A stretch of 63,040 nt of DNA, the filler included. It is 4 parts of 4 records of this genome, joined end to end, with 100 filler letters (N's around TTAATTAATTAA, not from the genome) between each part and the next. Parts side by side here need not be neighbours in the genome. Positions count along the whole stretch, not along the records: positions 14,581 to 40,774 come from DRR378314_303; 3 more parts are not named here. One strand, 5' to 3'. Below are positions 14,581-30,568 of the stretch, piece after piece. Each line of letters starts with the position of its first letter. Position 1 is the first letter of the stretch. Below the pieces are notes generated by a model, which had not been told where the DNA came from, ran no database searches, and was given only the letters and a program-made list of their open reading frames with translations. The position numbers and the translations under genes were made by a program.

Positions 14581-14585
14581 CCGCC

Positions 14586-15770
14586 ATGCAGGCTCCGGCC
14601 GATATGCAGGCGATCGAGCCCGGTCTCTACCGCGGCACCTTTGAACCCGCCATGGACGGTAGTTGGCCGCTGACTCTAAAGATTGAGGCGCCGGGTATGC
14701 CAGCTCGGCAAATCAGCTTTGATTTGGCCGTCGGTCGCGAAGGCCTCCAACTGGCCTCCGGTGCCAGCCGAACCGACGGTGGCGGCATGGCCGAGGAGGC
14801 ACCACCGGGTACGGTGACCCTGGACAATCGTCGTCGCCAGTTGATCGGTGTGGAAACCGCCGAGGCACAAACCTTGGCTATGACCCGCGCCATCCGCGCG
14901 GAAGGGCGGATTGCCTACGACGATACCCAACTGGCGGACGTCAGCCTCAAGTTTGATGCCTGGGTCGGCGAGCTCTACGCCGATTACGTGGGGGTTTACG
15001 TGGAAAAGGGAGAGCCCCTGTTTACCGTTTATGGTCCGGCGCTGCTCGCCGCTCAGCAGGAGTATCTGCAGTTGAAGCGCCGCAGTGGCGCCTCACAAAC
15101 TTTGGTGACCGCCGCTCGAAAACGGCTTGCACTGTGGGACATGACCGACGCGGAAATCACCACCCTGGAAAAACGAGGAGAGCCCCTCGATTACGTCACC
15201 ATGCACGCGCCCATCAGTGGCACAGTGGTGGCCAAGAATGTGGTGGAAGGGACCGCCCACAAGGCCGGGATGACGCTTTTGCGTATTGCCGATCTCTCCC
15301 AGGTCTGGGTGGAGGCCGATATCTACGAGGGCGAACTGCCCCTGGTGACGGAGGGCATGCCCGTTACCGTGACGCTTCCTTATCTGCCCGGTGAACAGTT
15401 TGAGGGCCAAGTGGACTACATTTACCCCTATTTGGACGACGTCAGCCGTACGGGGCGAGTGCGCCTTAGCGTCGCTAACCCTGAAGGTCGTCTCAAGCCC
15501 AATATGTACGCCGAAGTGAAGCTTAAGGCCGATCTTGGGCAGCGAGTGGCCGTGCCGGAAGAGGCGGTAATTATCGCGGGTGAACTGCGTGTGGTGTTCG
15601 AGGACCTGGGAGAGGGTCGGCTGGCACCGCGCAAAGTGCAAACCGGTCAACGGGCCGGCGGTTACATCGAAATCATCGAGGGGGTCGAGGCGGGTGACCG
15701 CGTGGTCACCTCCGGTAACTTCCTGATCGCCTCCGAGAGCCGACTCAAAGGAGGCATGGAGCAATGGTAA
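14586..15770 (+). CDS. CusB-like RND periplasmic adaptor with N-terminal YtkA/FixH-like segment (5' truncated by gap)
   Basis: APISGTV, IADLSQVWVEADIYE, RLKPNMY and VVTSGNFLIASES motifs; overlaps the cusA-like start. Confidence 0.88.
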   Translation: MQAPADMQAIEPGLYRGTFEPAMDGSWPLTLKIEAPGMPARQISFDLAVGREGLQLASGASRTDGGGMAEEAPPGTVTLDNRRRQLIGVETAEAQTLAMTRAIRAEGRIAYDDTQLADVSLKFDAWVGELYADYVGVYVEKGEPLFTVYGPALLAAQQEYLQLKRRSGASQTLVTAARKRLALWDMTDAEITTLEKRGEPLDYVTMHAPISGTVVAKNVVEGTAHKAGMTLLRIADLSQVWVEADIYEGELPLVTEGMPVTVTLPYLPGEQFEGQVDYIYPYLDDVSRTGRVRLSVANPEGRLKPNMYAEVKLKADLGQRVAVPEEAVIIAGELRVVFEDLGEGRLAPRKVQTGQRAGGYIEIIEGVEAGDRVVTSGNFLIASESRLKGGMEQW

Positions 15771-18700
15771 ACGACGTACATAAGCATCCGCCCGCTCATC
15801 CCCCGGCCGAAGGGGAGGGGATTGGCTGGTTGCAGCGAATTATTGGCTATTGTGCCCGCAAACCCCTGATTACCTTGGTGGCCGTGCTTGCCCTGACCTT
15901 TGGCGGCTGGCAGGCGTTACAGCGGGCACCGTTGGATGCTATCCCTGACCTGTCAGATGTGCAGGTGATTGTCTTCACCGACTGGCCCGGGCGCAGCCCG
16001 GACCTGGTGGAGGACCAGATCACCTATCCTCTGACCACCTCCTTGCTGTCTGCGCCGGGAGTAAACTATGTGCGCGGCCAGAGCATGTTCGGCCTGTCGT
16101 TTGTCTATGTGATTTTCGACGATGGCGTGGACATGTACTGGGCCCGCTCGCGGGTACTGGAGTACCTCAACGGTGCCGCCGCCGAGTTGCCGGAGGGGGT
16201 CACTCCGACTTTGGGGCCGGATGCTACGGGTGTCGGTTGGGTCTACCAATATGCACTGAGAGATACGTCTGGCAACCACAGCCTGGCGGATCTGCGCTCA
16301 CTGCAGGATTTCAATTTACGCTATGCCCTGGAAGCGGTTGAAGGGGTCGCCGAGGTGGCCTCCATCGGTGGGTTCCAGCGTGAATACCAGATCAGTCTCG
16401 ACCCGAACAAACTCGCCTCTTACGACATCCCCCTCAAACGGGTCACTGAGGCGGTTGGGGACTCCAACCAGGATGTAGGTGGACGCATTCTTGAGGTGGC
16501 AGGCCACGAGCAGTTTATTCGCGGGCGGGGTTATGTGAAGTCCGTAGCGGATCTGGAAACAGTGGTGTTAAAAACCACGGCTGAGGGTGTACCGATCACG
16601 GTAAAAGACGTCGGTCACGTGGCATTGGGACCGGCTATGCAGCGCGGTCAGGCGGAGCTGGACGGCGAGGGCGTAGCCGTGGGCGGTATTGCGGTAATGC
16701 GTTATGGCGAGAACGCCCTGGAAGTTATTGACAAGGTCAAGCAGCGCCTGGAAGAGATCAAGCCCGGGCTCCCTGAAGGTGTCGAAATTGTGCCGGTCTA
16801 TGATCGCTCGATTTTGATCAACGAAGCCGTTGACACGCTGACCTCGACACTGATTAAGGAGATCCTGATTGTCTCCCTGATTATCGGCGTTTTTCTGTTA
16901 CACGTGCGCTCTACGCTGGTGGCCGCGATTACTCTCCCGGTAGCGGTGCTGATGTCCTTCATCCCCATGTATTTTCAGGGGCTGACCGTCAACATCATGT
17001 CTTTGGGCGGCATTGCGGTGGCCATTGGCGCCATGCTGGATGCGGCGATTGTCATTATCGACAATATCCACAAACGGTTGGCCCGGTGGGAGAGTGACGA
17101 CGCCGACCCCGAGGAAAAGGCCAAGTCCCGACGGGACGTGATTATTGAGGCCATGCAGCAGGTAGGCCCCAGCATCTTTTTCTCGCTGGCAATCATCACC
17201 ATCTCCTTTATGCCGGTGTTCGTCCTGGAAGGCACAGAAGGGCGCATGTTCAAGCCTCTGGCTTTTACCAAGACCTATTCCATGGCATTTGCGGCGTTCC
17301 TGTCCATCACTCTGGTGCCGGCCCTCGCGGTATGGCTGATTCGCGGCAAGATCCGTGCTGATCGCAGTAAGTTGAACCAGTGGCTGGTGGCTGCGTACCG
17401 GCCTGTGGTGGCTTTCGCCGCGCGTTTTCGGTGGGGAGTCATCGTGGGAGCGGTGTTGCTATTGCTGATCACGATCATTCCCTTCCGGCAATTGGGCAAC
17501 GAGTTTATGCCACCTCTGAACGAGGGCTCGGTTCTCTTTATGCCCACCGCGCTGCCGGGAATGTCCATTTCCGAGGCCACCCAGACCATGCAGACTATGG
17601 ACCGGATCATTGCCGACATTCCCGAAGTGGAGCATGTTTTCGGCAAGGTTGGTCGCTCCACCAGCGCGACCGATCCCGCGCCGTTATCCATGGTGGAAAC
17701 GGTCATTACCTTGAAGCCGGAGGACCAGTGGCGCGAGGGCATGACGTGGGACGGTCTGATTCAGGAGATGGACTCGAAACTCAAGTTTCCGGGAATGCCC
17801 AATATTTTTTGGATGCCCATACAGACTCGCACCGAAATGCTCGCGACCGGTATTCGTTCAGCGTTGGGCATCAAGGTGTTTGGTCCGGACCTGGCCACTA
17901 TCGAAAAAACGGGCATCGCCATTGAAAAAGCGTTGCAGGAGGATGAGCGCACCGCCGATGCCACCCGCAGCGCCTTTGCCGAGCGCAGCACCGGTGGGTA
18001 CTTTCTGGATTTCACCGTCAACCGAAGTGCTGCGGCTCGCTTTGGCCTCAACGTTGGCGATGTGGAACGGGTGATCATGGCGGCCATGGGGGGGACTGTG
18101 GTGTCGCAAACCGTGGAGGGGCGCGAGCGCTACAACATCCTGGTGCGCTACGCCCGGGATTACCGCGACAACGTGGAAGCGCTGGAGCGAGTACTGGTGC
18201 CCACTCCTTCCGGGGAGCAGATTCCCATCGCCCAGGTGGCGGACATTGAGTTTCAAACCGGGCCGCCTTCCATTCGCAGTGAGGACGGGCAACTTGTGGG
18301 ATTCGTCTTTGTGGACGTCAAAAGCGAAGTCGGTATTGCCGATTATGTCGAACAGGCCAAGCAGGTGGTTGGCGACCAGGTCGATGTGCCGGACGGTTAT
18401 CGGCTGGCTTGGGCGGGGCAGTTCCAGTATTTTGAGCGGGCCAAAGCCAAACTCCAATTGCTGGTTCCGATCACGCTGTTCCTGATTTTCTTCATGCTCT
18501 TTATGCACCGAGGCTCCCTCGTAGAGACCCTGCTGGTGATGCTGAGTGTGCCCATTTCGCTGAGCGGGGCCGTCTGGCTGATGTGGTGGCTGGACTTTAA
18601 CCTCAGTGTCGCCGTCTGGGTGGGCATGATTGCCGTTGCGGGGCTCGCCGTGGAGCTCGGGTTGCTGATGATGGTGTATCTGGATATCGCCTGGCGGGAC

Positions 18701-18997
18701 AGGGAGGCCGAGCGCCGACTCAATACCCGTGGAGATATGACCGAAGTCGTCCAGAGCGGCGCCGGCCAACGCATCCGGCCCATGCTGATGACCGGGCTGT
18801 CGACCTTTATCGGGTTGGTGCCGATCCTGTTCGCCAGCGGTACCGGCGCGGACGTGATGCAGCGCATCGCCGCGCCCATGGTCGGCGGGGTGATTTCTGC
18901 CCTGTTGATGGTGCTGGTGGTATACCCGGCAATCTTCATGCTATGGCGGGGACGCGGTCTGCCCAAGGGGGCACCGACACCACCGCTGAAAACTTAA
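15764..18997 (+). CDS. cusA: CusA/CzcA family heavy-metal RND permease
   Basis: LDAIPDLSDVQVI, YWARSRVLEYL, LGPDATGVGW and GADVMQRIAAPMVGG, typical of the Cu/Ag CusA clade. Confidence 0.9.
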   Translation: MVNDVHKHPPAHPPAEGEGIGWLQRIIGYCARKPLITLVAVLALTFGGWQALQRAPLDAIPDLSDVQVIVFTDWPGRSPDLVEDQITYPLTTSLLSAPGVNYVRGQSMFGLSFVYVIFDDGVDMYWARSRVLEYLNGAAAELPEGVTPTLGPDATGVGWVYQYALRDTSGNHSLADLRSLQDFNLRYALEAVEGVAEVASIGGFQREYQISLDPNKLASYDIPLKRVTEAVGDSNQDVGGRILEVAGHEQFIRGRGYVKSVADLETVVLKTTAEGVPITVKDVGHVALGPAMQRGQAELDGEGVAVGGIAVMRYGENALEVIDKVKQRLEEIKPGLPEGVEIVPVYDRSILINEAVDTLTSTLIKEILIVSLIIGVFLLHVRSTLVAAITLPVAVLMSFIPMYFQGLTVNIMSLGGIAVAIGAMLDAAIVIIDNIHKRLARWESDDADPEEKAKSRRDVIIEAMQQVGPSIFFSLAIITISFMPVFVLEGTEGRMFKPLAFTKTYSMAFAAFLSITLVPALAVWLIRGKIRADRSKLNQWLVAAYRPVVAFAARFRWGVIVGAVLLLLITIIPFRQLGNEFMPPLNEGSVLFMPTALPGMSISEATQTMQTMDRIIADIPEVEHVFGKVGRSTSATDPAPLSMVETVITLKPEDQWREGMTWDGLIQEMDSKLKFPGMPNIFWMPIQTRTEMLATGIRSALGIKVFGPDLATIEKTGIAIEKALQEDERTADATRSAFAERSTGGYFLDFTVNRSAAARFGLNVGDVERVIMAAMGGTVVSQTVEGRERYNILVRYARDYRDNVEALERVLVPTPSGEQIPIAQVADIEFQTGPPSIRSEDGQLVGFVFVDVKSEVGIADYVEQAKQVVGDQVDVPDGYRLAWAGQFQYFERAKAKLQLLVPITLFLIFFMLFMHRGSLVETLLVMLSVPISLSGAVWLMWWLDFNLSVAVWVGMIAVAGLAVELGLLMMVYLDIAWRDREAERRLNTRGDMTEVVQSGAGQRIRPMLMTGLSTFIGLVPILFASGTGADVMQRIAAPMVGGVISALLMVLVVYPAIFMLWRGRGLPKGAPTPPLKT

Positions 18998-19086
18998 TGC
19001 GTCATCGCCGTCCGGTACCGATCCGTACTTTCGGTACCGGGCGGCGGTACTTTCGGTACTCTACTTACTTTAACTGGAGGCAACCC

Positions 19087-19323
19087 ATGAAAAATTTGAT
19101 GCGTTCATTTTTACTTTTAGCATTTACATTTCTGGCAAACACCGCCTTGGCTGCCGAACAAGCTTCGGCTGGGATGATGCAAGACTCCGGCATGATGGGC
19201 GCTGGTTTTATGTTGGCGTGTATCGTCTTGCTGATCCTGCTGTTCATTGCCTTGGTTCTGGCGATCCTGTCCATGATTAAGTACCTGTTCTTCAGTAAAT
19301 CCAAAAAAGGAGACCGTTCATGA
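19087..19323 (+). CDS. Small Met-rich membrane protein
   Basis: GGAGG RBS, signal-like N-terminus, GMMQDSGMMG and one TM helix; ATGA overlap with the next gene. Confidence 0.65.
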   Translation: MKNLMRSFLLLAFTFLANTALAAEQASAGMMQDSGMMGAGFMLACIVLLILLFIALVLAILSMIKYLFFSKSKKGDRS

Positions 19324-19790
19324 CAACCTTTCTGCGTTGGAAAAGGCGATACACATCGATCCTCAGAGGGGCGTTGATGGTGACCGTTTACTTGGCCAGC
19401 TTGCCGTCGGTGCAGGCCGCCGAAACCGTTGATGCGACGCTGTACAAAAATCCGAGTTGCCGGTGCTGCGACCAATATGCTGCGTACTTGCGCCAGTACG
19501 ACTATGAGATCAAGGTGACTGAAACCCCCAACTTGAGGCAGTTCAAAGCCGAGCATGGCGTACCGTCCCGCTTACAAAGTTGTCATACCATGCTGCTCGA
19601 TGGGTACGTGATCGAGGGTCATGTTCCGGTGGGGGTTATTAACAAGCTCCTGGACGAACGGCCAGAGATCCGCGGTGTATCGCTTCCCGGCATGCCCCAG
19701 GGGTCGCCGGGAATGTCTGGGCAAAAGCGGGAGCCTTTTGTGATTTATGCGATTACGGATGACGAAATGTCGATCTACGCCACTGATTGA
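19320..19790 (+). CDS. DUF411 (CopG-like) periplasmic metal-binding protein
   Basis: YKNPSCRCC, SCHT, IEGHVP and PGMPQGSPGM motifs. Confidence 0.9.
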   Translation: MTTFLRWKRRYTSILRGALMVTVYLASLPSVQAAETVDATLYKNPSCRCCDQYAAYLRQYDYEIKVTETPNLRQFKAEHGVPSRLQSCHTMLLDGYVIEGHVPVGVINKLLDERPEIRGVSLPGMPQGSPGMSGQKREPFVIYAITDDEMSIYATD

Positions 19791-19806
19791 AACAGAGGTC
19801 ACCGTC

Positions 19807-20049
19807 ATGGCGAAGAGCGAGAAAGAGAACGGTCCGGGGCGAGGCGCCCGAGTGCGCAATTTGCGTCAGTGGTTCAGGCGCCGTCCCATTGCCGTCGCGG
19901 TCTGCCTGGTGGCATTGATAGGTCTCGCGCTCGGTTGGAACTGGCTGGCGGCGAGCGGGTTGCTCGTCGTGGCCCTGGTTGGCCTGGGGTGTCTGATGAT
20001 GTGCGTTTTGGGCATGCACAGCGGGCACGATAAAGGAGACGAAAACTAA
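19807..20049 (+). CDS. Small two-TM membrane protein (CLMMC...GMH motif)
   Basis: GAGG RBS and LGWNWL...LGCLMMCVLGMH, a type seen in metal-resistance clusters. Confidence 0.6.
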   Translation: MAKSEKENGPGRGARVRNLRQWFRRRPIAVAVCLVALIGLALGWNWLAASGLLVVALVGLGCLMMCVLGMHSGHDKGDEN

Positions 20050-20122
20050 ACGCTCCGAAAACCGGCGTTTCCCATGGAATGTCGGGAGAGCCCAACCACC
20101 GCACCTGTGAGGGTATCAAACG

Positions 20123-20651
20123 ATGAATGAACTTATGGGCCATGCGGGGCTATGGGGCATTGCACTGATTGTTATTGCATTGGTCTCCTGGATGTTTTAT
20201 CGGTATTTTGCGCCGAAAAGCTGGCGTGAATGGGCGGGTGCCGGGTTGGTGCAAGCTTTCATCATCGCACTTTATGCCGAGATGTACGGCTTTCCACTGA
20301 CGATTTATCTACTGGTGCGGTTCTTCGGGCTGGATAGCGATTACGTTAGCGCCAACCTGTGGGCCACCCTGATAGGGTTGGGTGAAACCGGCATGCTGAT
20401 CTCCATGTTGCTTGGCTATGCACTCGCTTTCATCGGCATTGGCCTACATTGTTCTCGGTTGGGTTGTTTCCGCTTATTGTATTTGCCTACTACCGGCTGG
20501 CGCAGCGAGAGGAGCGGCAAGTGATGGAGCGGTTCGGTGACGCCTACAGGGCCTACCAGCGACGGGTTCCATGTTCCTGCCTGGTTGGCGTCAATGGCGG
20601 CAGCTCGCGGATGCCTCGCTGGACGAAACCGATCACAAAAATTCTGAATGA
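20123..20651 (+). pseudogene. Isoprenylcysteine carboxylmethyltransferase-family membrane protein, internally deleted and frameshifted
   Basis: The N-terminus (ALYAEMYGFPLTIY) is in one frame and the C-terminal EERQVMERFGDAYRAYQRRVP in another after about 20445. The central GxY..vRHPqY motif is absent, and a second shift near 20570 gives VP/MFLP. Confidence 0.75.
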
Positions 20652-20825
20652 TGTTTCGCGAGTCAGATTCCCCGGCTAGGGAAGATTTGCGACTCTGGCG
20701 AGAATGTCTAGACTTGAAACTAGCGTTTCGTCTAGGCATCCATGGCAGGGGGCCCGAAGCCCTTTGGCAATAGCAGATTAAAATTTCAGCCTCTGAGGCA
20801 GAGTAAACTTGAGAAGTTAGAAGTT

Positions 20826-21188
20826 ATGAGCGCTACACAACAATACTTACTGCTGCTGGGATTGGCACTGGGTATCCTGGGCGCGGTGTTAAGCCTGTAT
20901 GGTTTAGCCCGTAGTGTGGGTCCAACACGGCAGGAACCTGGCAAGGATGTGCCGGCAAGCGCCGGAGTGCTGTCGCGGGCTCCGGTCTGGGGACGTTATC
21001 ATGCGCGCTATTACGGTTATGCATTGCTGTTTTTGGCGTTCGATATGGAGATGGCCTACATGTACCCTTGGGCGGTTGTGTTCAAGGAAGTAGGGCTGGT
21101 TGCTTTACTTGACATGGGCGTGTTTCTTGCGATTCTCTTTCTTGGGTTGCTTTACGGATGGAGTCAGGGCGCTCTGAGGCGGCAATGA
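20826..21188 (+). CDS. NuoA-like membrane subunit
   Basis: [23 protein letters not shown] and C-terminal W..GAL; three TM helices. Confidence 0.88.
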
Positions 21189-22828
21189 TGACCGAGGTCG
21201 CAACGACACTTGCAGGCGCACGCAAAGGGCGTCCATCTATCCTGCGAAGGTGGGTTGGGCAGGCTCTGGCGCGCAATTTGAGCTGCCTGGTAGTCCCTGG
21301 GCCGGAAGTGGCCCTGGCGCATGGGCTGAACCTGGCGGCCGCAGACATGCGCATCGCCGCCACGCCGCGCGATGCCACTGTGCTCCTGGTTGTCGGTGAG
21401 CTATCTCAGAAGTTGGACGAGGCCACCGCAGTGCTCTATGCCCAGATGCCTAGGCCGCGAGCTATTCTAGTGCTCGGTGGGTCAGAACCTTCGTCTTTGC
21501 CTAAAGCTGACGTTTCCGCGGATCTCTCACAAACCGAACTGATGGAGGCGGCCACTCGGCTGCAGCGGTTGCTGGCTGAAGACGCCTTCGCCGCCTCGCC
21601 TGACGATTTTGACTCATCAATCCTGCAAACCAAAACTGAGTACGTCTGCCCCATGCACCCGGAAGTGGTGGAGGACGAACCAGGTAGCTGTCCCAAATGC
21701 GGCATGGATTTGGTGGCGCGCGAAGCCGGCGGCGACGCGGATGCTGGGGAGCACGACCATTCCGGCCACGGTCACGGCGATCATGATCACGGAGACCACG
21801 ACCACGGCAGCTCGGGATTCATGTCCATGGTCGAGGTTACCAAAGACCTGCCTCGCAGCGCTGACGGTTTGGCAATGGACTGGCTTGAGGTGCCCTTCGG
21901 CCCCTGCTTTCCCGGTTTGCCGGGAGGATTGAGACTGACCTTGACGCTCGACGGTGACGGGGTGACCGAGGGCCAAGCGACATCTCTGGTAGCTATGGGC
22001 ACCCCCTCTGAAGAGGTGGCGGTCGAAACCTTCATCGAGCGCCTGGCGGCGGCCACGCCGTTGGCACCGGTAAGTTACCGCCTCTTGGCCTGCCGCGCTA
22101 TCGAGCAGGCGGCTGGTCTGGAGCCAGATCCGGCCGTCGAGCGGGGCCGGGCGGCCGCTCTTGAGCGAGAGCGCATCGCCAGCCATCTGGGCTGGCTGGC
22201 CCAGTTGGGCCGCCAGCTCAGCTTTGTCTGGTTGACACGTCGTGCGGCGGCTTTGCAATTGGAAACCCAGCGCGCCGACGGGGAGCAGCTTGTTGTCCTG
22301 CGGCCGGCGCTGCAGGCGCTCATCGCACGGCTCGAGCATACGCCCCTTCTCAAAGCGCGCTTGAAAGGCATCGGCGCTTTGCCCCACGGCTCCCAGGATC
22401 TAAGAGGCCCGGTGGCACGCGCCTCCGGCCGGACCGAAGATGCCCGCCAGGCGGACGCAATGTATTGCGAGCTGGGTTTCGAGCTGTACATTGAGGGCGC
22501 TGGGGACGCCTGGGCGCGTTTCCGGCAGCGGCATGTTGAGATCGTGACCAGTCTCGATCTCGTAGAGGCCGCCGGAGACCCTGAGCTCCCCAAGCTGCGA
22601 GCCATCGACAGCCCTTCCGGAACGGGGGAGGCGACCGTGGAAACGCCGCGCGGCCGCTCCACATTGCAGCTGACCCTGGAGCGAGGGCAGGTGGTATCGG
22701 TCGAGCTGGACGGCGCCTGCCGCCAACATATCGGCCTGGCCGCCGACCTGGTCGAAGGTCAGGAATTGGGTGATGCCTTGGTGGCGGTCGGGTCACTGGA
22801 TCTCTCGCCCTGGGAGGTGAGCTCATGA
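21185..22828 (+). CDS. Fusion of degenerate NuoB-like domain, heavy-metal-binding domain, His-rich linker and degenerate NuoD-like domain
   Basis: NuoB-like [13 protein letters not shown]...[55 protein letters not shown]; NuoD-like FGP...[37 protein letters not shown]. Confidence 0.85.
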
Positions 22829-23721
22829 CTGTCGCCATAGTGTTGCTCACACTGTTGGTTGGCGCTTGGTTACTGGCTGTGATTGAGGCCTGGCTCACGA
22901 CCGGCCGCCTGCGACCGGTCGCCCCGCTGCTTGCGGGCCTGTCGCACCTGGGCCGCGAGTCCATCTTGGCGCGCAAGCCCGACCGGCTGTTTTTCGAGAC
23001 CGCACCAGTGTTGTTGCTGGTGGTGGCGGTGCTCGGTGCTGCCGTACTTCCGCTGACGCCGGATCTGGTCATTGCTGATCTGGCCACCGGCGCCTTGTTT
23101 CTCAACGCGGTGCTTGCCTATGTGTTGGTATCGCTGATCATGGCTGGTTGGGGCCCGAACGGCGCCTACGCGATGATAGGTGGCTGGCGTTTTCTCGGCC
23201 AACTTATCGCCTACTCCATGCTTATCGTCATGCCCATTACGGCGACCGCCATGCGCGCCGAGTCCCTGTTGAACAGCGTCATCGTCGAGTCTCAGGCCGG
23301 TTTATGGAACATCGTTTACCAACCGCTGGGGTTTGTGTTGTTTTTCATCGCCGCTATGGCGTTGGCGTTCCGCTCACCCTTCGACCTGCCTACCGCACCC
23401 GGCGAGTTAGCCGGCGGGGTCGACGCCGAATACACCGGCGTGCGCCTGACAGTGTTGCGGCTAGCACGATTGGTGATGCTAATCACCCTGTCTGCCGCGA
23501 CTACGGTGTTCTTTCTCGGTGGCTGGCAGGGGCCGCTTTTGCCGCCCTGGGCCTGGAGCCTGATCAAGACTCTGGCGGTAGCCGTATCGATGTTGCTGGT
23601 TGGCTACTATTTGCCGCGTATTCGCGAGGCGGATCTGCTGGGTTGGTGCTGGAAGTTTGGAATCCCCCTGGCGCTGCTCAATATTTTGATAGTCGGATTG
23701 CTCATCCTGGTGGTGCCCTAA
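22825..23721 (+). CDS. NuoH-like membrane subunit
   Basis: [41 protein letters not shown] and LPRIR...CWK motifs. Confidence 0.88.
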
Positions 23722-24287
23722 TGGTTGCACAGGCTTTTTTTGTCGGCGTATTCGGGCTGGCTGCGATCGGTTTCGGTGTGGCGGTGTTCCGTACCGCGTC
23801 TATGGTGCGTTCTGCGCTGGCGCTGCTGTTTTCACAGGCCGCCGTGGGCTGCATGTTTCTGGCCATGCAGGCCGAATTTCTGGGCGTGCTGCAGATTATG
23901 ATGATGGCCACCGAAATGAGCATCATGGCCATCTTCATGGTGATGTTCATGATGGACCCCGGTGGGCTTGGCGGGATGGATATGAGCCACCAGAAGCGCT
24001 TTTCGATTGGTGCTGGAGCCATTGCCGCCACCACCGCCATCTCGGTAGCGCTGTTCTCTGATTGGGGGCCGATATTCGCCGAGGCGCCGGATGCTGCAAT
24101 GCAAACGCGGGAGCTCGGTTTTGAAATGTTGGATCGCTCTATGCTGATTTTCGAGACCGCCGCTATCACCATCCTGACCGCAATGATCGCGGCTACGGCA
24201 GTAGCGATTCCGGTGCGCCAGCCCGGCGTCGACACAGGAAAGCTCGACAAGGAAAACGGTGATAAAGAACAGGAGGCTTCAAAATGA
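23721..24287 (+). CDS. NuoJ-like membrane subunit
   Basis: SALAL...AEFLGVLQI...FMVM and FETAAITILTAMIAA motifs; ATG overlaps the nuoH-like stop. Confidence 0.85.
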   Translation: MVAQAFFVGVFGLAAIGFGVAVFRTASMVRSALALLFSQAAVGCMFLAMQAEFLGVLQIMMMATEMSIMAIFMVMFMMDPGGLGGMDMSHQKRFSIGAGAIAATTAISVALFSDWGPIFAEAPDAAMQTRELGFEMLDRSMLIFETAAITILTAMIAATAVAIPVRQPGVDTGKLDKENGDKEQEASK

Positions 24288-24595
24288 CTCCGGTACTGAT
24301 CCTGGCACTTCTGACCGGCGCCATTCTCTTTGGTGTCGGTATCTATGGCGCGCTCTCGCAGACTAACCTGGTCATGATAATGATGGGAGTGGAGCTGATT
24401 CTGGCGGGCGCGCTGGTGAACCTTGTGGCCTTCTGGCGCTTTCTGCATCCGGAGGTCTACGCCGGACAGATGTTTGTGCTGGTGGTAATGACGGTTATGG
24501 CAGTGGAGATGGCCGTCGGTTTCGGCGTCGCAATTGCACGCTTCCGGGCCAAGGGCTCGGTCGAGATGGAAGAGGCCGGAGACCTGCAGGGATGA
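24284..24595 (+). CDS. NuoK-like membrane subunit
   Basis: MGVELIL, GQMFVL and AVEMAVG, with both conserved Glu present. Confidence 0.9.
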   Translation: MTPVLILALLTGAILFGVGIYGALSQTNLVMIMMGVELILAGALVNLVAFWRFLHPEVYAGQMFVLVVMTVMAVEMAVGFGVAIARFRAKGSVEMEEAGDLQG

Positions 24596-26502
24596 GTGAC
24601 CTGGTCTTGCCCATAGTGTTCCCTTTGCTTGCGGCCGCTGCCATTCTGCTGCTGCGCCGGGGAGCGGCTATTTTGGCGCTGGTCGGGGTCGCACTTAGTT
24701 TGGCGGCAAGCCTTAAGCTTTTGGGGGCGGTCGCCAGTGGTGACTCCGCAACCCTGCTGCTGCCAGGCTTGCCGGATCTACCCTTGCGGTTGACCGCCGA
24801 GCCGTTAACCGCGTTGCTCAGTGTAGTGGTTGCCGCCGTGGCGACTTGCGTGTTGATTTATTCGGTAGGCTATATGAAGCGGGAGTCCGGCCTACCCCGC
24901 TTTTTTGCCGTTATGTCCTTGTTTGTTGCCGCCATGCAGGCCCTGGTTCTGGCCGGCGACTGGGTTCTGGTGCTCGCCGCCTGGGAGCTGATTGGCTTGT
25001 GCAGTTACCTGCTGATCGGTTTCTGGTTTCAGCGGCCCGAAGCGGCGAACGCCGCGAGCCGTGCCTTTCTCTACACCCGCAGTGCCGATCTTGGTCTGTA
25101 CATCGCGATATTCACCCTCATGGGGGCGGCGGGCACCAGCGAGATCGCCGCCACCCTGAATGTCGACGGAGACACCGCCGTGGCGGCCGGGCTTTTGTTG
25201 CTGCTCGCTATCATGGGCAAGTCTGCCCAGATCCCCCTCCAGGACTGGCTTATGCGTGCCATGGCGGGGCCCACACCGGTGTCGGCGTTGTTGCACTCGG
25301 CGACACTGGTGGCAGCAGGTGCCATTTTACTGATCCGTGTAGCGCCGCTGCTGACGCCGGAAGTTTTGCTCGCTATTGGGCTGGTGGGCGGTATTACTAC
25401 CGTGGCGGCAGGTCTGATTGCGCTTGCCGAACGTGACCTCAAGCGCCTGCTGGCGGCCTCAACCGCCAGTCAGTATGGTCTGATGCTGATTGCGGTCGGC
25501 GCCGGGGTGCCGCTGGCGGCGTTGTTGCATCTGCTTGCCCATGCCGCCATCAAGAGTGGCCTGTTTTTAGCAGCCGGTGAATTTCAGCATGCGCGCGGCG
25601 GCACGGCTCTGGAGCGCTTGCGTGGTGTAGGGCGCGTCCGGCCCTGGACTTTCTTCGGCTTCGCATTGGCAGCGCTGGCCCTAGTGGGTGCTCCACCGCT
25701 GAGCGGCTTCTTCTCAAAGGACGCGGTGATCGCCGCCGCACTGTCCGCGCCAAGTGTCGCCTGGCTCGCTCCCCTGGCACTGGCGGGCACACTGCTGACC
25801 GGTGCCTACTTGGCTCGCGCGCTGCGGCTGCTATGGCACGAGCGCGAGGAGGGTGAAAACGAAAACCGTTCGGTGGCCGGCGCCCGCTGGATGGGGCTGG
25901 GAGTATGGGCCCTGGTAATCCCAGCCGTCTTCCTGGGTCTGACCTTCGGTCCCATTGAAGCCTTGTTGGGTTTGCCCGGCCCTGGAGACCATGGCACTAC
26001 CGCCATGCTGTTCGGGCTTCTCGCGGCAGCGGCCGGTCTGGCGCTGGGCTGGCTGGTACCGGCATCTCGCTTGCTTGGCCCTTTCCACCCCTGGGCACAA
26101 TCGGGGCTGGTCATCGCCGGAGGGCTCTCCTTCTGGATCGGCCGACCAGCCATGGCCATTGCCTACGGCTGCCAGCGCCTGGAGCGTGGCCTATACGCGA
26201 CCGTCCTGAGTGTCGGCCGCGGAGGCTTCTTCATTGCTCGAGGTTGCGGGCGCGTGGAACGAGGTTTGTATGCGGTGGTGTTGGGTACTGGCCGTGCCAG
26301 CTTGGCCGTGGCGCACTTGGTTCGGGTAGGAGATGAGCGCCGAATCGACGGCCTGATCTTCGCCCTGGTGGCCAGCGTACGAGGCTGGGGAGACCGCGCC
26401 CGCGTCCTGCAAAGCGGTTGGATTCACCACAGTCTGGCTATCAGCGCCGTGGTTACCGCCGTAACACTGATCATACTGCTTTCAGCCTCGTTGAGTTTCT
26501 AG
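24592..26502 (+). CDS. NuoL/MrpA-like antiporter subunit
   Basis: WELIGLCSYLLIGFW, GKSAQIPLQDWL, GPTPVSALLH and GFFSKD motifs. Confidence 0.92.
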   Translation: MSDLVLPIVFPLLAAAAILLLRRGAAILALVGVALSLAASLKLLGAVASGDSATLLLPGLPDLPLRLTAEPLTALLSVVVAAVATCVLIYSVGYMKRESGLPRFFAVMSLFVAAMQALVLAGDWVLVLAAWELIGLCSYLLIGFWFQRPEAANAASRAFLYTRSADLGLYIAIFTLMGAAGTSEIAATLNVDGDTAVAAGLLLLLAIMGKSAQIPLQDWLMRAMAGPTPVSALLHSATLVAAGAILLIRVAPLLTPEVLLAIGLVGGITTVAAGLIALAERDLKRLLAASTASQYGLMLIAVGAGVPLAALLHLLAHAAIKSGLFLAAGEFQHARGGTALERLRGVGRVRPWTFFGFALAALALVGAPPLSGFFSKDAVIAAALSAPSVAWLAPLALAGTLLTGAYLARALRLLWHEREEGENENRSVAGARWMGLGVWALVIPAVFLGLTFGPIEALLGLPGPGDHGTTAMLFGLLAAAAGLALGWLVPASRLLGPFHPWAQSGLVIAGGLSFWIGRPAMAIAYGCQRLERGLYATVLSVGRGGFFIARGCGRVERGLYAVVLGTGRASLAVAHLVRVGDERRIDGLIFALVASVRGWGDRARVLQSGWIHHSLAISAVVTAVTLIILLSASLSF

Positions 26503-26517
26503 AGGATAGCCATACTC

Positions 26518-27987
26518 ATGCTACCAATTGTATCCCTTACTCTGTTTTTGCCGCTCGCCGGTGCCGCCCTGATTCTGGCCCTTCCGGGGCCGACGGCGCG
26601 AACCGTACACAGCATTGGTATTGGCACCGCCAGTTTAACTCTGGTCGGGGCGCTGGCCATGTGGCTGGAGGGAGTGAGCGGCGCGGGCTTTTCCCAAGTC
26701 GAAGAGCTCGAATGGATTCCGGCTATCGGTGCCGCCTACCGGGTCGGTGTGGACGGCATCAGCCTGCCCCTGGTGCTGCTGAGTGCTATGCTGTTTTTGG
26801 GGGCATTCATCTATGCTTCGTCGCTGCGCGAGCGCCCGCGCGCCTACGTGGCTTTGGTTCTGCTTCTAGAAACTGCAGCAATCGGCACCTTTGCCGCCCT
26901 CGACGGAATTCTGTTCTATGTGTTCTTCGAAGTCTCCCTGGTGTCGATGTATTTCATGATTGCCGGTTGGGGCCATGAGGACCGGCAGCGGGCGGCTCTG
27001 ATGTTTTTTATCTACACGCTTCTGGGCAGCCTGCCGTTATTGCTCGCCATCCTGGGGCTTTACCTCGGCAGTCCCGATCCCAGCTTCGACATGCGCGCCT
27101 GGATCGCTAATCCACCGCTGGAAGGGGCTGCGGCCATGTGGGCGCTGGTCGCCATGCTGGTTACTTTTGCGGTCAAGATCCCCGCCGTACCGTTGCACAC
27201 TTGGTTACCTGCCGCCCACGTCCAGGCGCCGACTGTCGGCAGTGTCATCCTGGCCGGCATCATGCTGAAATTTGGAACCTACGGGCTGGTTCGCTTCGCC
27301 CTACAAATGACTCCCGAGGCGTTCCACGAAGCCGGCGTCGTTGTCCTGGTGTTCGGTGTCATCGGCGCGCTCTATGGCGCCTTCGCCGCTCTGGCGCAGA
27401 CCGATCTCAAGCGTCTGGTGGCCTATACGTCGATTAACCACATGGGCTATGTGATCATCGGCGTCGCCGTGGCTGCACTGGCTCTGGACCCTTCAGTGCG
27501 TGCCACCGCACTCGATGGCGCCGTCCTGCAGATGTTCAGTCACGGTTTGGTTACCGGTGCATTGTTCTTCCTGGTGGGGATGATTCAGGAGCGCGCACAT
27601 ACTCGCGAGATGGGCGAATTTGGCGGCCTACTAAAAACGGTTCCGCTGTTGGGCTGGTCCTTTATGTTGGCGGCCTTTGCGTCGCTGGGCCTGCCTGGTC
27701 TGGCGCACTTTCCAGGGGAGTTCCAGATATTTCTGGGTACGCTTGGTAGTGTGCCCGCCGCCGTCGTGTCGATACTGGGCCTTGCTATCATTGCGGGTAC
27801 CTTTCTCAAAGCGATTCGCGAAACCTTTCTTGGCGAGCCTCAGTCACGTTGGCATAGCATGCCCGACCTGAGTTTGCGCGAAGTGCTCGCGCTGGCGCCA
27901 TTACTGGTTCTCACCGTAGCTACCGGGGTGGCACCATCCTGGGTGCTGGACACCATTCACCGGACTACCTCGGCGTTGGTGCTATAA
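26518..27987 (+). CDS. NuoM-like antiporter subunit
   Basis: VGVDGIS, FFE, VKIPAVPLHTWLP.AHVQAP, DLKRLVAY and LGLPG..F.GEF motifs. Confidence 0.92.
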   Translation: MLPIVSLTLFLPLAGAALILALPGPTARTVHSIGIGTASLTLVGALAMWLEGVSGAGFSQVEELEWIPAIGAAYRVGVDGISLPLVLLSAMLFLGAFIYASSLRERPRAYVALVLLLETAAIGTFAALDGILFYVFFEVSLVSMYFMIAGWGHEDRQRAALMFFIYTLLGSLPLLLAILGLYLGSPDPSFDMRAWIANPPLEGAAAMWALVAMLVTFAVKIPAVPLHTWLPAAHVQAPTVGSVILAGIMLKFGTYGLVRFALQMTPEAFHEAGVVVLVFGVIGALYGAFAALAQTDLKRLVAYTSINHMGYVIIGVAVAALALDPSVRATALDGAVLQMFSHGLVTGALFFLVGMIQERAHTREMGEFGGLLKTVPLLGWSFMLAAFASLGLPGLAHFPGEFQIFLGTLGSVPAAVVSILGLAIIAGTFLKAIRETFLGEPQSRWHSMPDLSLREVLALAPLLVLTVATGVAPSWVLDTIHRTTSALVL

Positions 27988-29351
27988 TGGGGCGTGATCT
28001 GGCATTGTTAATTCCCGAGATCGCTGTGCTGCTAGCCGCAGTCAGCGCGCTGATTGCAGAAATACTGCGCAGGCCTCGAGCTTCGCTGGCTCTCGCCATG
28101 CTGGGCCTGTTCGTCGCCACGGGACTGACCATACGTTTGGTGGGTACAGACACCACCGTATTCGGTGGCAGTTTTCGGATAGACGCGCTCAGCATCTGGG
28201 CAAAGCTGATTTTATTGCCGGCGACGATGCTGTCTTTGCTGCTGGCGAGCGCGGAAGTGCGCGGCACCGTGCGTGAGGGCACGGTCTACAGTTTATTATG
28301 TTTAGCTACCGTTGGTGCTCTTATTCTAGCCGGCGCCGGCGATATGATGTTTCTGGTTCTGGGCCTGTTGCTCACCAGTTTGGCGACCTTTGCTCTGGTG
28401 GCCTACCCGGACGACGATCCTGCCACCGAAGCCGCCATGAAATACTTTGTGTTTGGTTCGGTGGCTGGCGCGGTGATGATCTTTGGTCTCACGTACTGGT
28501 TCGGTGCCGCCGGCTCCACAATGATTGCCGACCTTGAGGGTACGGAGGCCATCCCTTTGGCTGTCATATTCGGTTTGGTGGCGGTTATTGTCGGTCTTGG
28601 CTATAAAGCATCTCTGGTTCCATTTCATTTTTGGGTGCCGGATGCCTATGAAGGTGGGCCCTTATCGGTTGCAGCCTTCCTGTCTGTGGTGCCCAAGGTG
28701 GGCGCGTTGTTTGCGCTAACTCAAGTGTTTCGTGACCTGCCTTCCGAAAGCGGTGGGCCCGCTGTTATCGCGGGACTAGCCGTACTGAGTATGACCTACG
28801 GTTACCTTGCCGCGTTGGTGCAGGATAATGTTGTTCGACTGCTGGCTTACTCATCTATTGCCCAGTCCGGGTACTTCCTCCTGGGTATTGTGGCGCTGGG
28901 CGAAAGTTCTTTTGCTTTGCCATCAATCATTTTTTTCGCTGCCGCGTACGCCGCTATGAATCTGGGGGCTTTCGCCGTTATCGCTGCGGTTGGGCGTACG
29001 CTAAACGATTTCAACGGCCTGGGGCGCGCTCAACCACTGGTGGGAGTCGCCATGGTACTTTTCCTGCTCTCGCTGGTAGGCATTCCGCCACTCGCTGGTT
29101 TCGTTGGCAAATTCCTGCTCTTTGCCGCTGCTATCCATGCGCAGTTTACCTGGTTGGCTGTAGTGGCGATTCTCAACAGTGTGCTCGCTCTCGCAGTATA
29201 TATGCGTATTATCGTGCCTATGTATAGGCAAGAAGAGGTGCCTCATGACGCTGCTAGTATTTGGATCGATATCGTGACGCTAACGGCGCTGTTAGCCACG
29301 GTTACTATTGGACTGGCCGCCCAGTTCTTCTTTGTGAAGTCGATGGCATAG
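27987..29351 (+). CDS. NuoN-like antiporter subunit
   Basis: EAAMKYF, YKASLVPFHFWVPDAYEG, RLLAYSSIAQ and GIPPLAGFVGKF motifs. Confidence 0.92.
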   Translation: MGRDLALLIPEIAVLLAAVSALIAEILRRPRASLALAMLGLFVATGLTIRLVGTDTTVFGGSFRIDALSIWAKLILLPATMLSLLLASAEVRGTVREGTVYSLLCLATVGALILAGAGDMMFLVLGLLLTSLATFALVAYPDDDPATEAAMKYFVFGSVAGAVMIFGLTYWFGAAGSTMIADLEGTEAIPLAVIFGLVAVIVGLGYKASLVPFHFWVPDAYEGGPLSVAAFLSVVPKVGALFALTQVFRDLPSESGGPAVIAGLAVLSMTYGYLAALVQDNVVRLLAYSSIAQSGYFLLGIVALGESSFALPSIIFFAAAYAAMNLGAFAVIAAVGRTLNDFNGLGRAQPLVGVAMVLFLLSLVGIPPLAGFVGKFLLFAAAIHAQFTWLAVVAILNSVLALAVYMRIIVPMYRQEEVPHDAASIWIDIVTLTALLATVTIGLAAQFFFVKSMA

Positions 29352-29491
29352 CGCATTCTCGGCGTCGTTCCTAGACAGATACTTGTTGTGTTTACCGTTA
29401 CTTCTGATATCTCGCTCATCATCTTTCCCAGAGAAGTCAGAAGCTTCAATGTTATTTGCTGCCGCTATGCCGGCGGCGGGGGCGAGAAAGT

Positions 29492-30562
29492 ATGGATTCG
29501 ATAACGCAGGCGGCCCTGGGGGGCGCCCTGGGCGGGGCGGTGCTGGGGCACCGGTTCGGGCGCGCCGCGGTGGTCGCCGGCGCGCTGCTCGGCACTCTGC
29601 CGGACATGGACGTGCTGATCGACTATGGCGATGCGGTGGCCAACTTTTCCCAGCACCGTGGTTTCAGCCATTCGCTGTTGGTGCTGGTGCCCCTGGCGGT
29701 GGTGCTGGCGGCGCTACTCAGTCGTTGGCAGCGCAGCGTATCGTTCCGCCGCTGGCTGACCTTCACCGGCGCCATCCTGATCACGCACCCGTTGCTGGAC
29801 GCCTTCACCACCTACGGCACCCAACTGCTCTGGCCGCTGGGGCCGCCGGTGGCCTGGCACACCATTTTTATTATCGACCCGCTCTACACGCTGCCGCTGC
29901 TGGTGGCGGTGATCATCGTCCTGGTCCGGCCGCCGGCGATCCGCGCGTTGACGGTGGGGCTGGCGCTGTCGAGCCTGTACCTGGCCTGGAGCCTGGCGGC
30001 GCAGCAGTGGGTGGACCACCGGGTGCACCAGGCGCTGGCCGGCACCGGCTACCAGACGGCGCCGCGCATGGTGCAGCCGATGCCGTTCTCCACGCTGCTG
30101 TGGCGGGCCACGGTGCTGCACCGCGAAGAACGCCTGGAGATCGTCACCGGGCTGCTGGACGGCGATGTGCCGCTGCATATTGAAGGCTTTCCGCGGGACG
30201 CCAATCTGGTCGCCTCGGCCAAGCAGCTGGACGACGGCCGCCGTCTGGAATGGTTCACCGGCGGCTTTCTGGATTACCGGTTGGAGGACGGGCGGCTGGT
30301 GGCCACCGACATCCGCCTCGGCGTGCCCGGCGCCCACCCCTTCCAGTTCGTGATCGCCGAGGCCCAGGGCGGGCCCGACAACCTGGCTTGGCAGGCGGTG
30401 CGCAGCACGCGCCTGGCCCGGCCGATGGTCAACGAAGACGCCTGGCCGGCCCTGTTTCGCCGCACCCTGGGGCTTAGTCCGGTGCTGTGCCTGCGTGAAC
30501 TCAAGCTGGCGTCGTCGGGCGCTGCCTGCGAGGGGACGCTGCCGCCGTTGGGCTCGCAGTGA
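29492..30562 (+). CDS. Metal-dependent hydrolase (YdjM/YfhP-like inner-membrane protein)
   Basis: MDSITQ, LPDMDV, HRGFSHS, HPLLDAFTTYGT and IIDP motifs. Confidence 0.88.
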   Translation: MDSITQAALGGALGGAVLGHRFGRAAVVAGALLGTLPDMDVLIDYGDAVANFSQHRGFSHSLLVLVPLAVVLAALLSRWQRSVSFRRWLTFTGAILITHPLLDAFTTYGTQLLWPLGPPVAWHTIFIIDPLYTLPLLVAVIIVLVRPPAIRALTVGLALSSLYLAWSLAAQQWVDHRVHQALAGTGYQTAPRMVQPMPFSTLLWRATVLHREERLEIVTGLLDGDVPLHIEGFPRDANLVASAKQLDDGRRLEWFTGGFLDYRLEDGRLVATDIRLGVPGAHPFQFVIAEAQGGPDNLAWQAVRSTRLARPMVNEDAWPALFRRTLGLSPVLCLRELKLASSGAACEGTLPPLGSQ

Positions 30563-30568
30563 GCCGGG

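Follow-up and report, generated by a model that had tools for sequence, protein, structure and literature searches.

What does a complex I-like machine do once the sites that handle its electrons have gone? This question is raised by a gene for a NuoB-NuoD fusion protein, and by the eight-gene cassette that surrounds it, in a window of 63,040 nucleotides (nt; the whole stretch of DNA analyzed). The window joins four parts by N fillers, and the parts need not be neighbors in the genome; the fusion gene and the cassette lie together in the part that comes from record DRR378314_303 (positions 14,581–40,774). An earlier note on this DNA had claimed that the fusion protein has lost its Fe-S and quinone-site motifs and carries an inserted metal-binding domain plus a His tract, and that a metal sensor or metal-delivery head has replaced the electron-input function. 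Comparison of the cassette with its relatives indicates that the machine keeps the proton-moving parts of complex I, has lost the electron-moving parts, and has gained predicted ligands for soft metals: the head bears Cys/His domains and a His tract, its junction with the membrane arm has a His-Met motif, and thioethers run along the third transmembrane helix (TM3) of NuoJ. Together with copper-gene neighborhoods, these gains make a proton-gradient Cu(I)/Ag(I) exporter the most economical reading. We put at about one in two the probability that the cassette is a self-contained, redox-free complex I descendant acting as a Cu(I)/Ag(I) exporter driven by the proton-motive force, with Ag(I) probably a substrate beside Cu(I).

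The open reading frame (ORF) of the fusion runs from 21158 to 22828 on the plus strand (556 codons), on which the rest of the cassette and the genes from cusB onward also lie. Close homologues begin nine residues downstream of the ORF start, at an ATG at 21185 that overlaps the stop codon of the preceding nuoA-like gene as ATGA and has GAGG seven bases upstream; because of these homologue starts and the ATGA overlap, we take the product to be a protein of 547 residues (21185–22828), the putative cytoplasmic head of the machine. The fusion is thus confirmed where the earlier note had placed it, and so is the order of its parts: a NuoB-fold domain (21185–21634), one heavy-metal-binding domain (HMBD, CxxH...CxxC; 21641–21712, residues 153–176), exactly where the CPMHP...CPKCGM segment had been read, and a His/Asp/Gly tract of 18 residues that is predicted to be disordered (21752–21805, residues 190–207) and that had been given, one base off, as about 21751–21804. 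The FMSM...LAMD segment seen behind the tract belongs to a family-defining Met motif, GFMSM...LAMDW (21815–21883), which stands directly before strand beta-1 of a NuoD-fold domain (21884–22825). In Pfam, the fusion protein matched HMBD (PF19335, E = 1.9e-14, 53.7 bits against a cut-off of 23.6) and, in part, Complex1_49kDa (E = 6.5e-14), while Oxidored_q6 gave no match to it at E ≤ 0.01; the NuoB and NuoD parts were mapped by hhalign. The NCBIfam models likewise scored far under their cut-offs, with 66 bits against 360 for NuoD and 25 bits against 116 for NuoB. Databases call the protein a "heavy metal-binding domain-containing protein" or a "Ni,Fe-hydrogenase III large subunit".

The likeness to NuoB is weak in sequence and, in the models, clear in fold. 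A phmmer search of the PDB gave the NuoB part an E value of only about 2e-3. When a profile of 20 diverse family members was aligned by hhalign with the canonical subunits of one Rubrobacter genome, the NuoB part matched NuoB over 89 columns (94% probability, E = 9.6e-8) and the NuoD part matched NuoD over 320 columns (99%, E = 4e-18). AlphaFold modeled residues 1–150 alone with a predicted local distance difference test (pLDDT) of 90.9, and all 50 PDB matches listed by Foldseek for this model were NuoB/PSST/NdhK/MbsJ chains, with a template-modeling (TM) score of about 0.6. The whole chain was modeled with a mean pLDDT of 90.6 and a predicted TM score of 0.88, with pLDDT below 50 only at residues 1–4 and at 185–211, around the His tract; Foldseek returned only NuoD-type chains for it (NuoD, NdhH, HycE and MbsL, TMt 0.54–0.77), the NuoB fold emerging from the separate N-domain model. 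In a three-chain model of NuoH, NuoA and the head, the interface score ipSAE was 0.84, compared to 0.23 for the best of three controls; the mark used for this score is attained by 51 of 78 solved complexes and by 2 of 108 mismatched pairs. Contact agreement among docking runs was at least 88%, and partner pLDDT at least 77. The modeled interface involves head residues 225, 229, 231–232 and 234–244 with the NuoA TM1-2 loop, residues 225, 229 and 231–232 touching NuoH/NuoA, and residues 18–31, 51–63 and 80–91 of the N-domain. Because complex I is already solved, this docking pass may show likeness to the solved complex, not binding.

We then asked what is left of the redox sites within these folds. 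The columns of cluster N2 were read against the NuoB proteins of Escherichia coli (C63, C64, C129 and C158), Marinobacter and Rubrobacter in 28 family rows. Column 1 holds Cys in 11 of the 28, the window's C34 among them; column 2 holds Leu or Phe, column 3 holds Gln, Gly, Ser and others, and column 4 is deleted in all 28. No more than one of the four N2 cysteines is therefore retained in the family, and hhalign sets non-Cys residues opposite the canonical NuoB motifs GACAISGG and PGCPP; the loss of the cluster ligands claimed for the NuoB part is borne out. In the NuoD part, canonical GPQHPAMHG aligns to GPCFPGLPG (within nt 21896–21928), as the earlier note had read it, and both His are gone; canonical RLDY aligns to AATP in the window and to RLDP in the family consensus, and the Tyr is gone as well. 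These His and Tyr positions are those that we take, following the complex I literature, to bind quinone. The NiFe CxxC pairs (RxCGxC at the N-terminus and DPCxxC at the C-terminus of hydrogenase large subunits), also reported missing before, are indeed absent: AAATPLAP faces CGICSFS of MbhL, and the C-terminus of the fusion reads SLDLSPWE. Because the 65-row family alignment contains no invariant Cys, neither Fe-S nor NiFe ligation appears possible family-wide. Together, these comparisons indicate that electron input and quinone chemistry have been lost from the head.

The fusion is embedded in a cassette, nuoA-(B/D)-H-J-K-L-M-N, within which most junctions overlap by 1 or 4 nt, an arrangement that marks the fusion as translationally coupled, as judged from the gene overlaps. 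Its other members are nuoA/ND3-like (20826–21188; Pfam Oxidored_q4, E = 1.2e-24), nuoH/ND1-like (22825–23721; NADHdh, E = 2.2e-57), nuoJ/ND6-like (23721–24287; Oxidored_q3, E = 6.2e-18), nuoK/ND4L-like (24284–24595), and the three antiporter-subunit genes nuoL/ND5-like (24592–26502; Proton_antipo_M, E = 6.8e-61), nuoM/ND4-like (26518–27987; Pfam and NCBIfam) and nuoN/ND2-like (27987–29351; Pfam). The NuoL-like protein is full length, covering positions 6–609 of the 615 in the NCBIfam model, and over the nuoA, H and J–N homologues the Pfam E values range from 1.8e-16 to 4.2e-68. The cassette lacks NuoC, I, E, F and G, for which its eight contiguous, overlapping genes leave no room, although these subunits were not searched for with models of their own.

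One genome per GTDB species was scanned with a pattern, which yielded 299 stretches; 254 of them encode a relative, and the best 80 loci were kept. All eight genes occur in the same order in 66 of these (span, 7,991–9,581 nt); the remaining 14 end at a contig edge within 825 nt, and the order is broken in none. Identity is high across phyla (NuoK 72–99%, NuoM 64–95%). Carriers include Alcanivorax/Alloalcanivorax (100% identical to the window), Halomonas, Marinobacter, Wenzhouxiangella, Salinisphaera and Chromatiales in the Gammaproteobacteria, Pusillimonas and Sulfuriferula in the Betaproteobacteria, Sulfitobacter and Pelagivirga in the Alphaproteobacteria, and, outside the Proteobacteria, Rubrobacteraceae and Chloroflexota. 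Twelve plasmid records, some of them conjugative, carry a family member, and a HMMER search of 1.84 billion cluster representatives found 162 at E ≤ 1e-30.

Could the cassette borrow its missing subunits from a canonical complex I? In the nearest genome (99% complete, with 60% of the words of the window), Complex1_49kDa matches nothing but the fusion, Oxidored_q6 has no match, and canonical NuoB and NuoD are both missing. Because canonical NuoB and NuoD are lacking there, we rejected borrowing of NuoC, I, E, F and G for this host, which appears to have no redox module to lend. A canonical nuo operon does co-occur with the cassette in Marinobacter, Halomonas and Rubrobacter carriers, in which borrowing may occur. 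In two Marinobacter loci (L028:14-6978 and L029), the cassette even stands directly downstream of canonical nuoH-N, with a P-II gene, a gene for an FAD protein and an ICMT-like gene in between, a naturally occurring pair in which the two can be compared.

If the electron-handling sites have gone, what has the head gained? Its HMBD matches the N-terminal domains of Cu P-type ATPases of the CopA type (8ovl, 3rfu) and RND (resistance-nodulation-division) adaptor proteins, in agreement with the earlier remark that this kind of domain is known from CusB and Cu P-type ATPases. The CxxH...CxxC pattern is invariant in 19 close homologues. Across relatives the domain occurs in 0–7 copies, with 1–4 copies in 64 of 66 full-length proteins from the species loci, and it is best regarded, from this distribution, as an accessory domain; multi-HMBD homologues match zinc-ribbon Pfam families too. 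The linker behind it is always of low complexity and rich in His, Asp and Glu (median 22% His and 47% H+D+E over 66 loci, the window's linker being among the shortest). Before NuoD strand beta-1 stands a constant motif, DHG-x-GFMSM-x-x-T-x-D-x-PRS-x-DGL-x-M-(D/E)-W, in which M213, M215, T219, D227 and M231 are invariant in 65 rows, and the FGPxFPGLPGG loop is constant across the family. Thus, the acidic/His linker and the FMSM motif emerge from the alignments as the constant parts of the head, and the inserted modules are, by family, metal-binding.

The membrane arm was compared using 52–65 distinct orthologues per subunit from the loci, aligned with the Nuo subunits of E. coli K-12 and canonical Marinobacter. 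The residues of the proton-pumping chain are kept: E144, D178, K229, H338, K342, K399 and D400 of NuoL in 65/65 (H334 in 62/65), E144, K234, K265, H322, H348 and E407 of NuoM in 61/61, K158, K217, K247 and K395 of NuoN in 56/56, and E36 and E72 of NuoK in 52/52. In NuoH, E157 has become Ala or Ser and E216 has become Thr. The new feature lies in NuoJ. Its TM3 in the window is LQIMMMATEMSIMAIFMVMFMMD, followed by the loop PGGLGGMDMSHQKR; across the family the helix reads GVLQIMMMATEMS.MAIFMVM.MMD, compared to GALEIIVYAGAIMVLFVFVVMML in E. coli, and continues as PGG.G.M.M.HQKR. About ten Met of this helix are invariant, Y59 is Met in 59/59, and NuoJ as a whole contains 10.5% Met (9.1–12.4%, n = 59), compared to 2.9–3.9% in canonical NuoJ of E. 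coli, Marinobacter and Halomonas. Every NuoJ orthologue recovered has the Met helix, and the locus set from which they came included two Rubrobacteraceae loci with HMBD-less heads, which may lie outside the 59 rows.

A weaker trend was seen in NuoK (9.3% Met vs. 4.9–9.0% in canonical proteins) and NuoA (4.8% vs. 1.5–3.4%). In NuoK, invariant family-specific Met have been gained on either side of both glutamates; in NuoA, the family reads FDMEMA.MYPW where E. coli has FDVEALYLFAW, with M74, M76, M79 and H59 invariant in 31 rows. NuoL, M and N are not enriched in Met. The gain therefore appears local, not compositional, and confined to the E-channel subunits NuoJ, NuoK and NuoA, which, by these alignments, have been remodeled along with the head. 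A remodeled E-channel favors delivery of metal for transport over a role purely in sensing. The earlier proposal that a metal sensor or delivery head stands in for electron input is thus supported with two qualifications: the HMBD is only accessory, and the membrane arm is altered too.

We next considered the genes around the cassette, using queries drawn from Pfam-annotated neighbors (11 loci) and the 71 loci flanked by 5 kb or more, over about 10 kb upstream and 3.5 kb downstream. At least one copper-homeostasis gene lies near the cassette in 47 of the 71, a raw count over loci that are not phylogenetically independent, made without a random-locus baseline. By gene, multicopper oxidase and CopB were each found in 25 loci, a Cu-type P-ATPase in 15, a cupredoxin in 14, CusF in 13, a CsoR-type repressor in 10, DUF411 in 5 and CusA in 4. 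Which partners occur depends on the group: Gamma- and Betaproteobacteria have multicopper oxidase/CopB, Alphaproteobacteria have multicopper oxidase/CusF/cupredoxin, and Rubrobacteraceae and Chloroflexota have CsoR plus P-ATPase. On a Rubrobacter tropicus plasmid (RefSeq), genes for DUF305, a heavy-metal P-type ATPase, a metal-sensitive CsoR-type regulator and a CopZ-like copper-binding protein precede the cassette on one strand; on a conjugative Paracoccus plasmid, the genes around it encode a multicopper oxidase, a metal-sensitive regulator of CsoR type and a P-type ATPase, and ars genes adjoin. The gene content thus indicates a context of copper homeostasis in several phyla. An APC-family permease gene (Pfam AA_permease_2) also lies beside the cassette, on either side, in 31 of the 71 loci from Gamma-, Beta- and Alphaproteobacteria (e.g., L018:7996-9381 and L069:19096-20421), and its product may be a functional partner.

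Is the cassette expressed? Twelve runs labeled as RNA contain half or more of the words sampled from 20742–24595, and contigs span the cassette in all four RNA-labeled runs examined, from four studies; in one of them, contigs match 20350–23945 and 23916–29549 with 0 and 5 differences, respectively. This evidence consists of library contigs only, with DNA carry-over possible. In one metatranscriptome (run X1; 14581–29549), word depth is about 1–4 over cusBA and about 40 over 20350–29549, a hint of cassette transcription apart from cusBA that we did not use as evidence, since depth of this kind cannot rank genes. Over 18900–30700, a promoter scan gave 3 sites (3.7 in shuffled sequence) and a terminator scan 14 (14.7), and because neither did better than the shuffles, neither scan delimits the transcription unit. 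In the literature covered, which leaves aside subscription journals, a copper-linked complex I relative was met only in a passing mention (PMC8233155, 2021). The passages concerned describe a "complex I-like" cassette that interrupts a copper-resistance cluster of Marinobacter atlanticus, which we liken to the present one by description, and report that its "NiFe-hydrogenase III large subunit" gene was significantly up-regulated with the cop genes on an electrode at 160 mV; their authors guessed that energy is gained from copper redox reactions (PMC8233155).

How might such an exporter work? Cytoplasmic Cu(I), free or from CopZ-like chaperones, would first bind to the HMBD(s) and the His/Asp tract and would move on to the His-Met motif DHG-x-GFMSM...M-D-W, which would sit where the head meets the NuoA loop, NuoH and the NuoJ TM3-4 loop (MMDPGGxGxMxMxHQKR). 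From there it would cross the membrane along a putative Met-lined bundle of NuoJ, NuoK and NuoA. Influx of H+ through NuoL, M and N would power export, reversing the coupling of complex I at several H+ per metal ion, and with several protons for each ion, export up a steep gradient could proceed without the use of ATP. In this window, CusBA or DUF411 could accept the metal once it is in the periplasm. A broader reading is that this is a new class of transition-metal transporter, ATP-free and with a high H+/Cu+ ratio, in which quinone chamber and E-channel have become a Cu(I) entry site and a thioether conduit, with NuoL/M/N working backward as its multi-proton motor; we advance it tentatively, at slightly less than even odds. 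Part of that same reading, and held with the same reserve, is the idea of a natural complex I without redox chemistry whose antiporter modules are coupled to ligand binding at the former quinone site.

Several observations weigh against export of Cu(I)/Ag(I). A CxxH...CxxC domain with a His/Asp/Glu tract would suit Zn, Ni, Co or Cd just as well, and by pattern match the HMBD is lacking in 41 of 64 full-length 50%-cluster representatives, drawn from the best 150 (23 of 64 have any); of the HMBD/His segment that the earlier note wished to see in orthologs, it is the acidic/His linker that proved constant. NuoH is not Met-enriched, and the TM5 glutamate of NuoN (E133 in E. coli) is Leu or Val in 56/56 orthologues. 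For the proton-chain residues, numbering and roles follow the complex I literature, as does the side of the membrane assigned to the NuoJ TM3-4 loop. With the query set used, 24 of the 71 loci have no copper gene (e.g., L028, L029 and L059), and to these must be added the raw nature of the neighborhood counts and the possible DNA carry-over in the RNA libraries. Finally, the hosts are mostly marine or halophilic and the antiporter residues are kept, which would fit a Na+/H+ or K+/H+ role.

This last point leads to the alternative that survives best, although we consider it unlikely: an Mrp-like H+/Na+(K+) exchanger or proton path that is switched by metal, the head and the Met-rich NuoJ helix sensing Cu(I) or another metal. 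Its purpose, equally unlikely in our view, might be defense of pH, Na+ or proton-motive force under metal stress. Beyond the antiporter residues and the marine or halophilic genera, the variable HMBD copy number would suit a tunable sensor, the rebuilt helix corresponds to the one that in complex I (ND6/NuoJ TM3) forms the conformational gate linking the quinone site and the pumps, and no copper gene stands near the cassette in 24 of the 71 loci. However, about ten invariant Met in a single helix, plus those of NuoK and NuoA, exceed what a sensor needs; CsoR-type regulators already stand beside the cassette in 10 loci; and in R. tropicus the order of CsoR-type regulator and then CopZ-like protein directly upstream resembles a layout for substrate delivery. 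Ordinary Mrp or Nha systems are, moreover, probably present in these genomes.

Quite unlikely, too, is that the machine serves Zn, Ni, Co or Cd, as transporter or metallochaperone, or works inward or for the metallation of exported cuproenzymes and not in detoxification. His/Asp/Glu-rich tracts and Cys2HisCys sites are typical of Zn, Ni and Co proteins, the zinc-ribbon matches of multi-HMBD homologues agree with this, sequence alone assigns no metal to pumps of the CusA/CzcA family, and neighboring multicopper oxidases and cupredoxins would need a copper supply. In favor of Cu(I)/Ag(I) instead, thioether-lined paths are a hallmark of Cu(I)/Ag(I) carriers (CusA, CusF and Ctr1), and the identifiable regulators and neighbors are of copper type (CsoR, CopZ-like, CopB, multicopper oxidase and CusF). 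We find it improbable that a new Cu center in the head oxidizes Cu(I) or reduces Cu(II) with quinone/quinol and couples this to proton translocation. The fold of the NuoH/NuoD cavity is kept in the models, multicopper oxidases, cupredoxins and cytochromes c are frequent neighbors, and the idea is in line with that of the M. atlanticus authors, in the passages noted above. Against this, the quinone His and Tyr have both become Pro and the first His of GPQHP has become Phe, an Fe-S relay is lacking, the HMBD serves for binding and not for redox chemistry, and the potentials of Cu(II)/Cu(I) and ubiquinone are too near each other to power three antiporter modules. Lastly, a functionless remnant of a decaying complex I, to which the loss of all cofactor ligands might point, is hardly credible and was rejected, given an intact, identically ordered cassette in 66/66 untruncated loci across phyla, high cross-phylum identity (the NuoK and NuoM values above), new invariant residues, gene overlaps as for translational coupling, and presence on conjugative plasmids and in RNA libraries.

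How does the proposed exporter relate to known machines? By its sequences the cassette belongs to the known complex I/Mrp superfamily, and its function is uncharacterized and probably new. It shares with respiratory complex I the NuoA, H, J, K, L, M and N homologues in canonical order, a full-length NuoL, the antiporter Lys/Glu/His chain and, in the models, NuoB and NuoD folds docking on NuoH/NuoA. It differs in having no NuoC, I, E, F or G, no N2 cluster and no quinone His/Tyr, in the fusion of B and D through metal-binding inserts, in a Met-lined NuoJ TM3, NuoK and NuoA, and in the replacement of NuoH E157/E216 and NuoN E133. The antiporter module that has lost this last residue, NuoN, lies next to the Met-lined region and may work differently. 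With Mrp antiporters, whose MrpA/D are homologous to NuoL/M/N (secondary NCBIfam matches), the cassette would share redox-free, multi-subunit expulsion of cations by the proton gradient. In contrast to it, Mrp has no NuoH, NuoB or NuoD homologues and no metal-binding head, and the membrane subunits of the cassette match Nuo models best (NuoL, E = 5.5e-113 vs. 9.7e-74 for Mrp). The cassette holds no genes beyond its eight, MrpB/E/F/G not having been searched for.

A NiFe-hydrogenase-related large subunit links the cassette to Ehr/Mbx-MBS complexes and to group 4 [NiFe] hydrogenases (MBH, FHL and Ech): the best PDB sequence match of the fusion is MbhL (6cfw_L, E = 2e-11), Foldseek finds HycE and MbsL, and the fusion has no NiFe cysteines. 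Where they differ is that the cassette head has no Fe-S ligands at all. The CopA P1B-ATPase and CusCFBA, frequent neighbors of the cassette, share with it a predicted role in Cu(I)/Ag(I) removal, an N-terminal HMBD, His-rich tracts and Met-based sites; CusA and CusF use Met-based Cu(I) relay sites, and CusA takes its substrate mainly from the periplasm. Their transport machinery is not homologous, and the cassette would use H+ via antiporter modules, not ATP. A precedent for a complex I scaffold driving a nonrespiratory reaction at an attached metal site is the cyanobacterial, CO2-hydrating NDH-1MS/MS' (CupA/CupB). NDH-1MS keeps a redox Q-module as its energy source and bears its add-on on NdhD/F, whereas in the cassette the Q-module itself would be converted. 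According to PMC6349859, complexes of the Ehr/Mbx-MBS and group 4 hydrogenase kinds are considered to link redox reactions in the cytoplasm with ion translocation; the loose definition of Ehr quoted there (group 4 hydrogenase-like, with a large subunit without NiFe ligands) would also cover the cassette.

If export of Cu(I)/Ag(I) is the true function, bacteria would have a third route for clearing cytoplasmic Cu and Ag, beside P-type ATPases and RND systems, on a proton-gradient-powered complex I chassis that is spreading on plasmids and islands among marine bacteria and those exposed to metals. It would also be a cofactor-free, eight-subunit minimal complex I in which the former quinone site must still signal to the antiporter subunits, so that the old question of how the quinone site drives distant proton pumps could be addressed by adding metal instead of by redox chemistry. 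Annotation pipelines call the cassette genes NADH-quinone oxidoreductase subunits or "Ni,Fe-hydrogenase III large subunit", a misnaming that would miscount respiratory capacity, for example, in Alcanivorax genomes that appear to have no true complex I.

In the window, the cassette belongs to a same-strand cluster that begins with a cusB-like periplasmic adaptor gene (14586–15770; Pfam HlyD_D23, E = 5.9e-78; NCBIfam CusB/CzcB-type adaptor, under equivalog cut-offs) and a gene for a CusA/CzcA-family heavy-metal RND pump (15764–18997; Pfam ACR_tran, E = 1.8e-229; NCBIfam TIGR00914, 1074.7 bits against a cut-off of 701). Between cusA and the cassette lie a gene for a small membrane protein with a signal-like N-terminus and a Met-rich segment, AGMMQDSGMMGAGFM, as read from the translation (19090–19323), a DUF411 gene (19320–19790; Pfam, E = 1.3e-24), of a family common in copper-resistance clusters, and a gene for a second small predicted membrane protein with CLMMCVLGMHSGH near its C-terminus (19807–20049). 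The two small proteins have no family match in Pfam or NCBIfam, and conservation of the first is limited to the closest Alcanivorax loci. Next comes a gene for an ICMT/PEMT-like membrane methyltransferase (20123–20679), apparently split over two frames (ORFs 20123–20524, 133 residues, and 20449–20679, 76 residues); its homologues in L028 and L034 are intact single ORFs of 223 residues (Pfam), and such a gene stands beside the cassette in 10 of the 71 loci. RNA-library contigs of two runs diverge from the window at 20414, and other strains thus differ at this gene.

Farther away, a gene for an SCO1/SenC copper chaperone (1714–2322; Pfam, E = 1.9e-34) lies 12 kb before the cus genes in window coordinates and is probably unrelated, serving cytochrome oxidase housekeeping. 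The GC content is 47–58% up to about 22 kb, 58–63% over most of the cassette, 68–69% at 30–36 kb and 42% at 38–40 kb, beside an AAA-ATPase gene (39233–40492), and this mosaic suggests several acquired segments.

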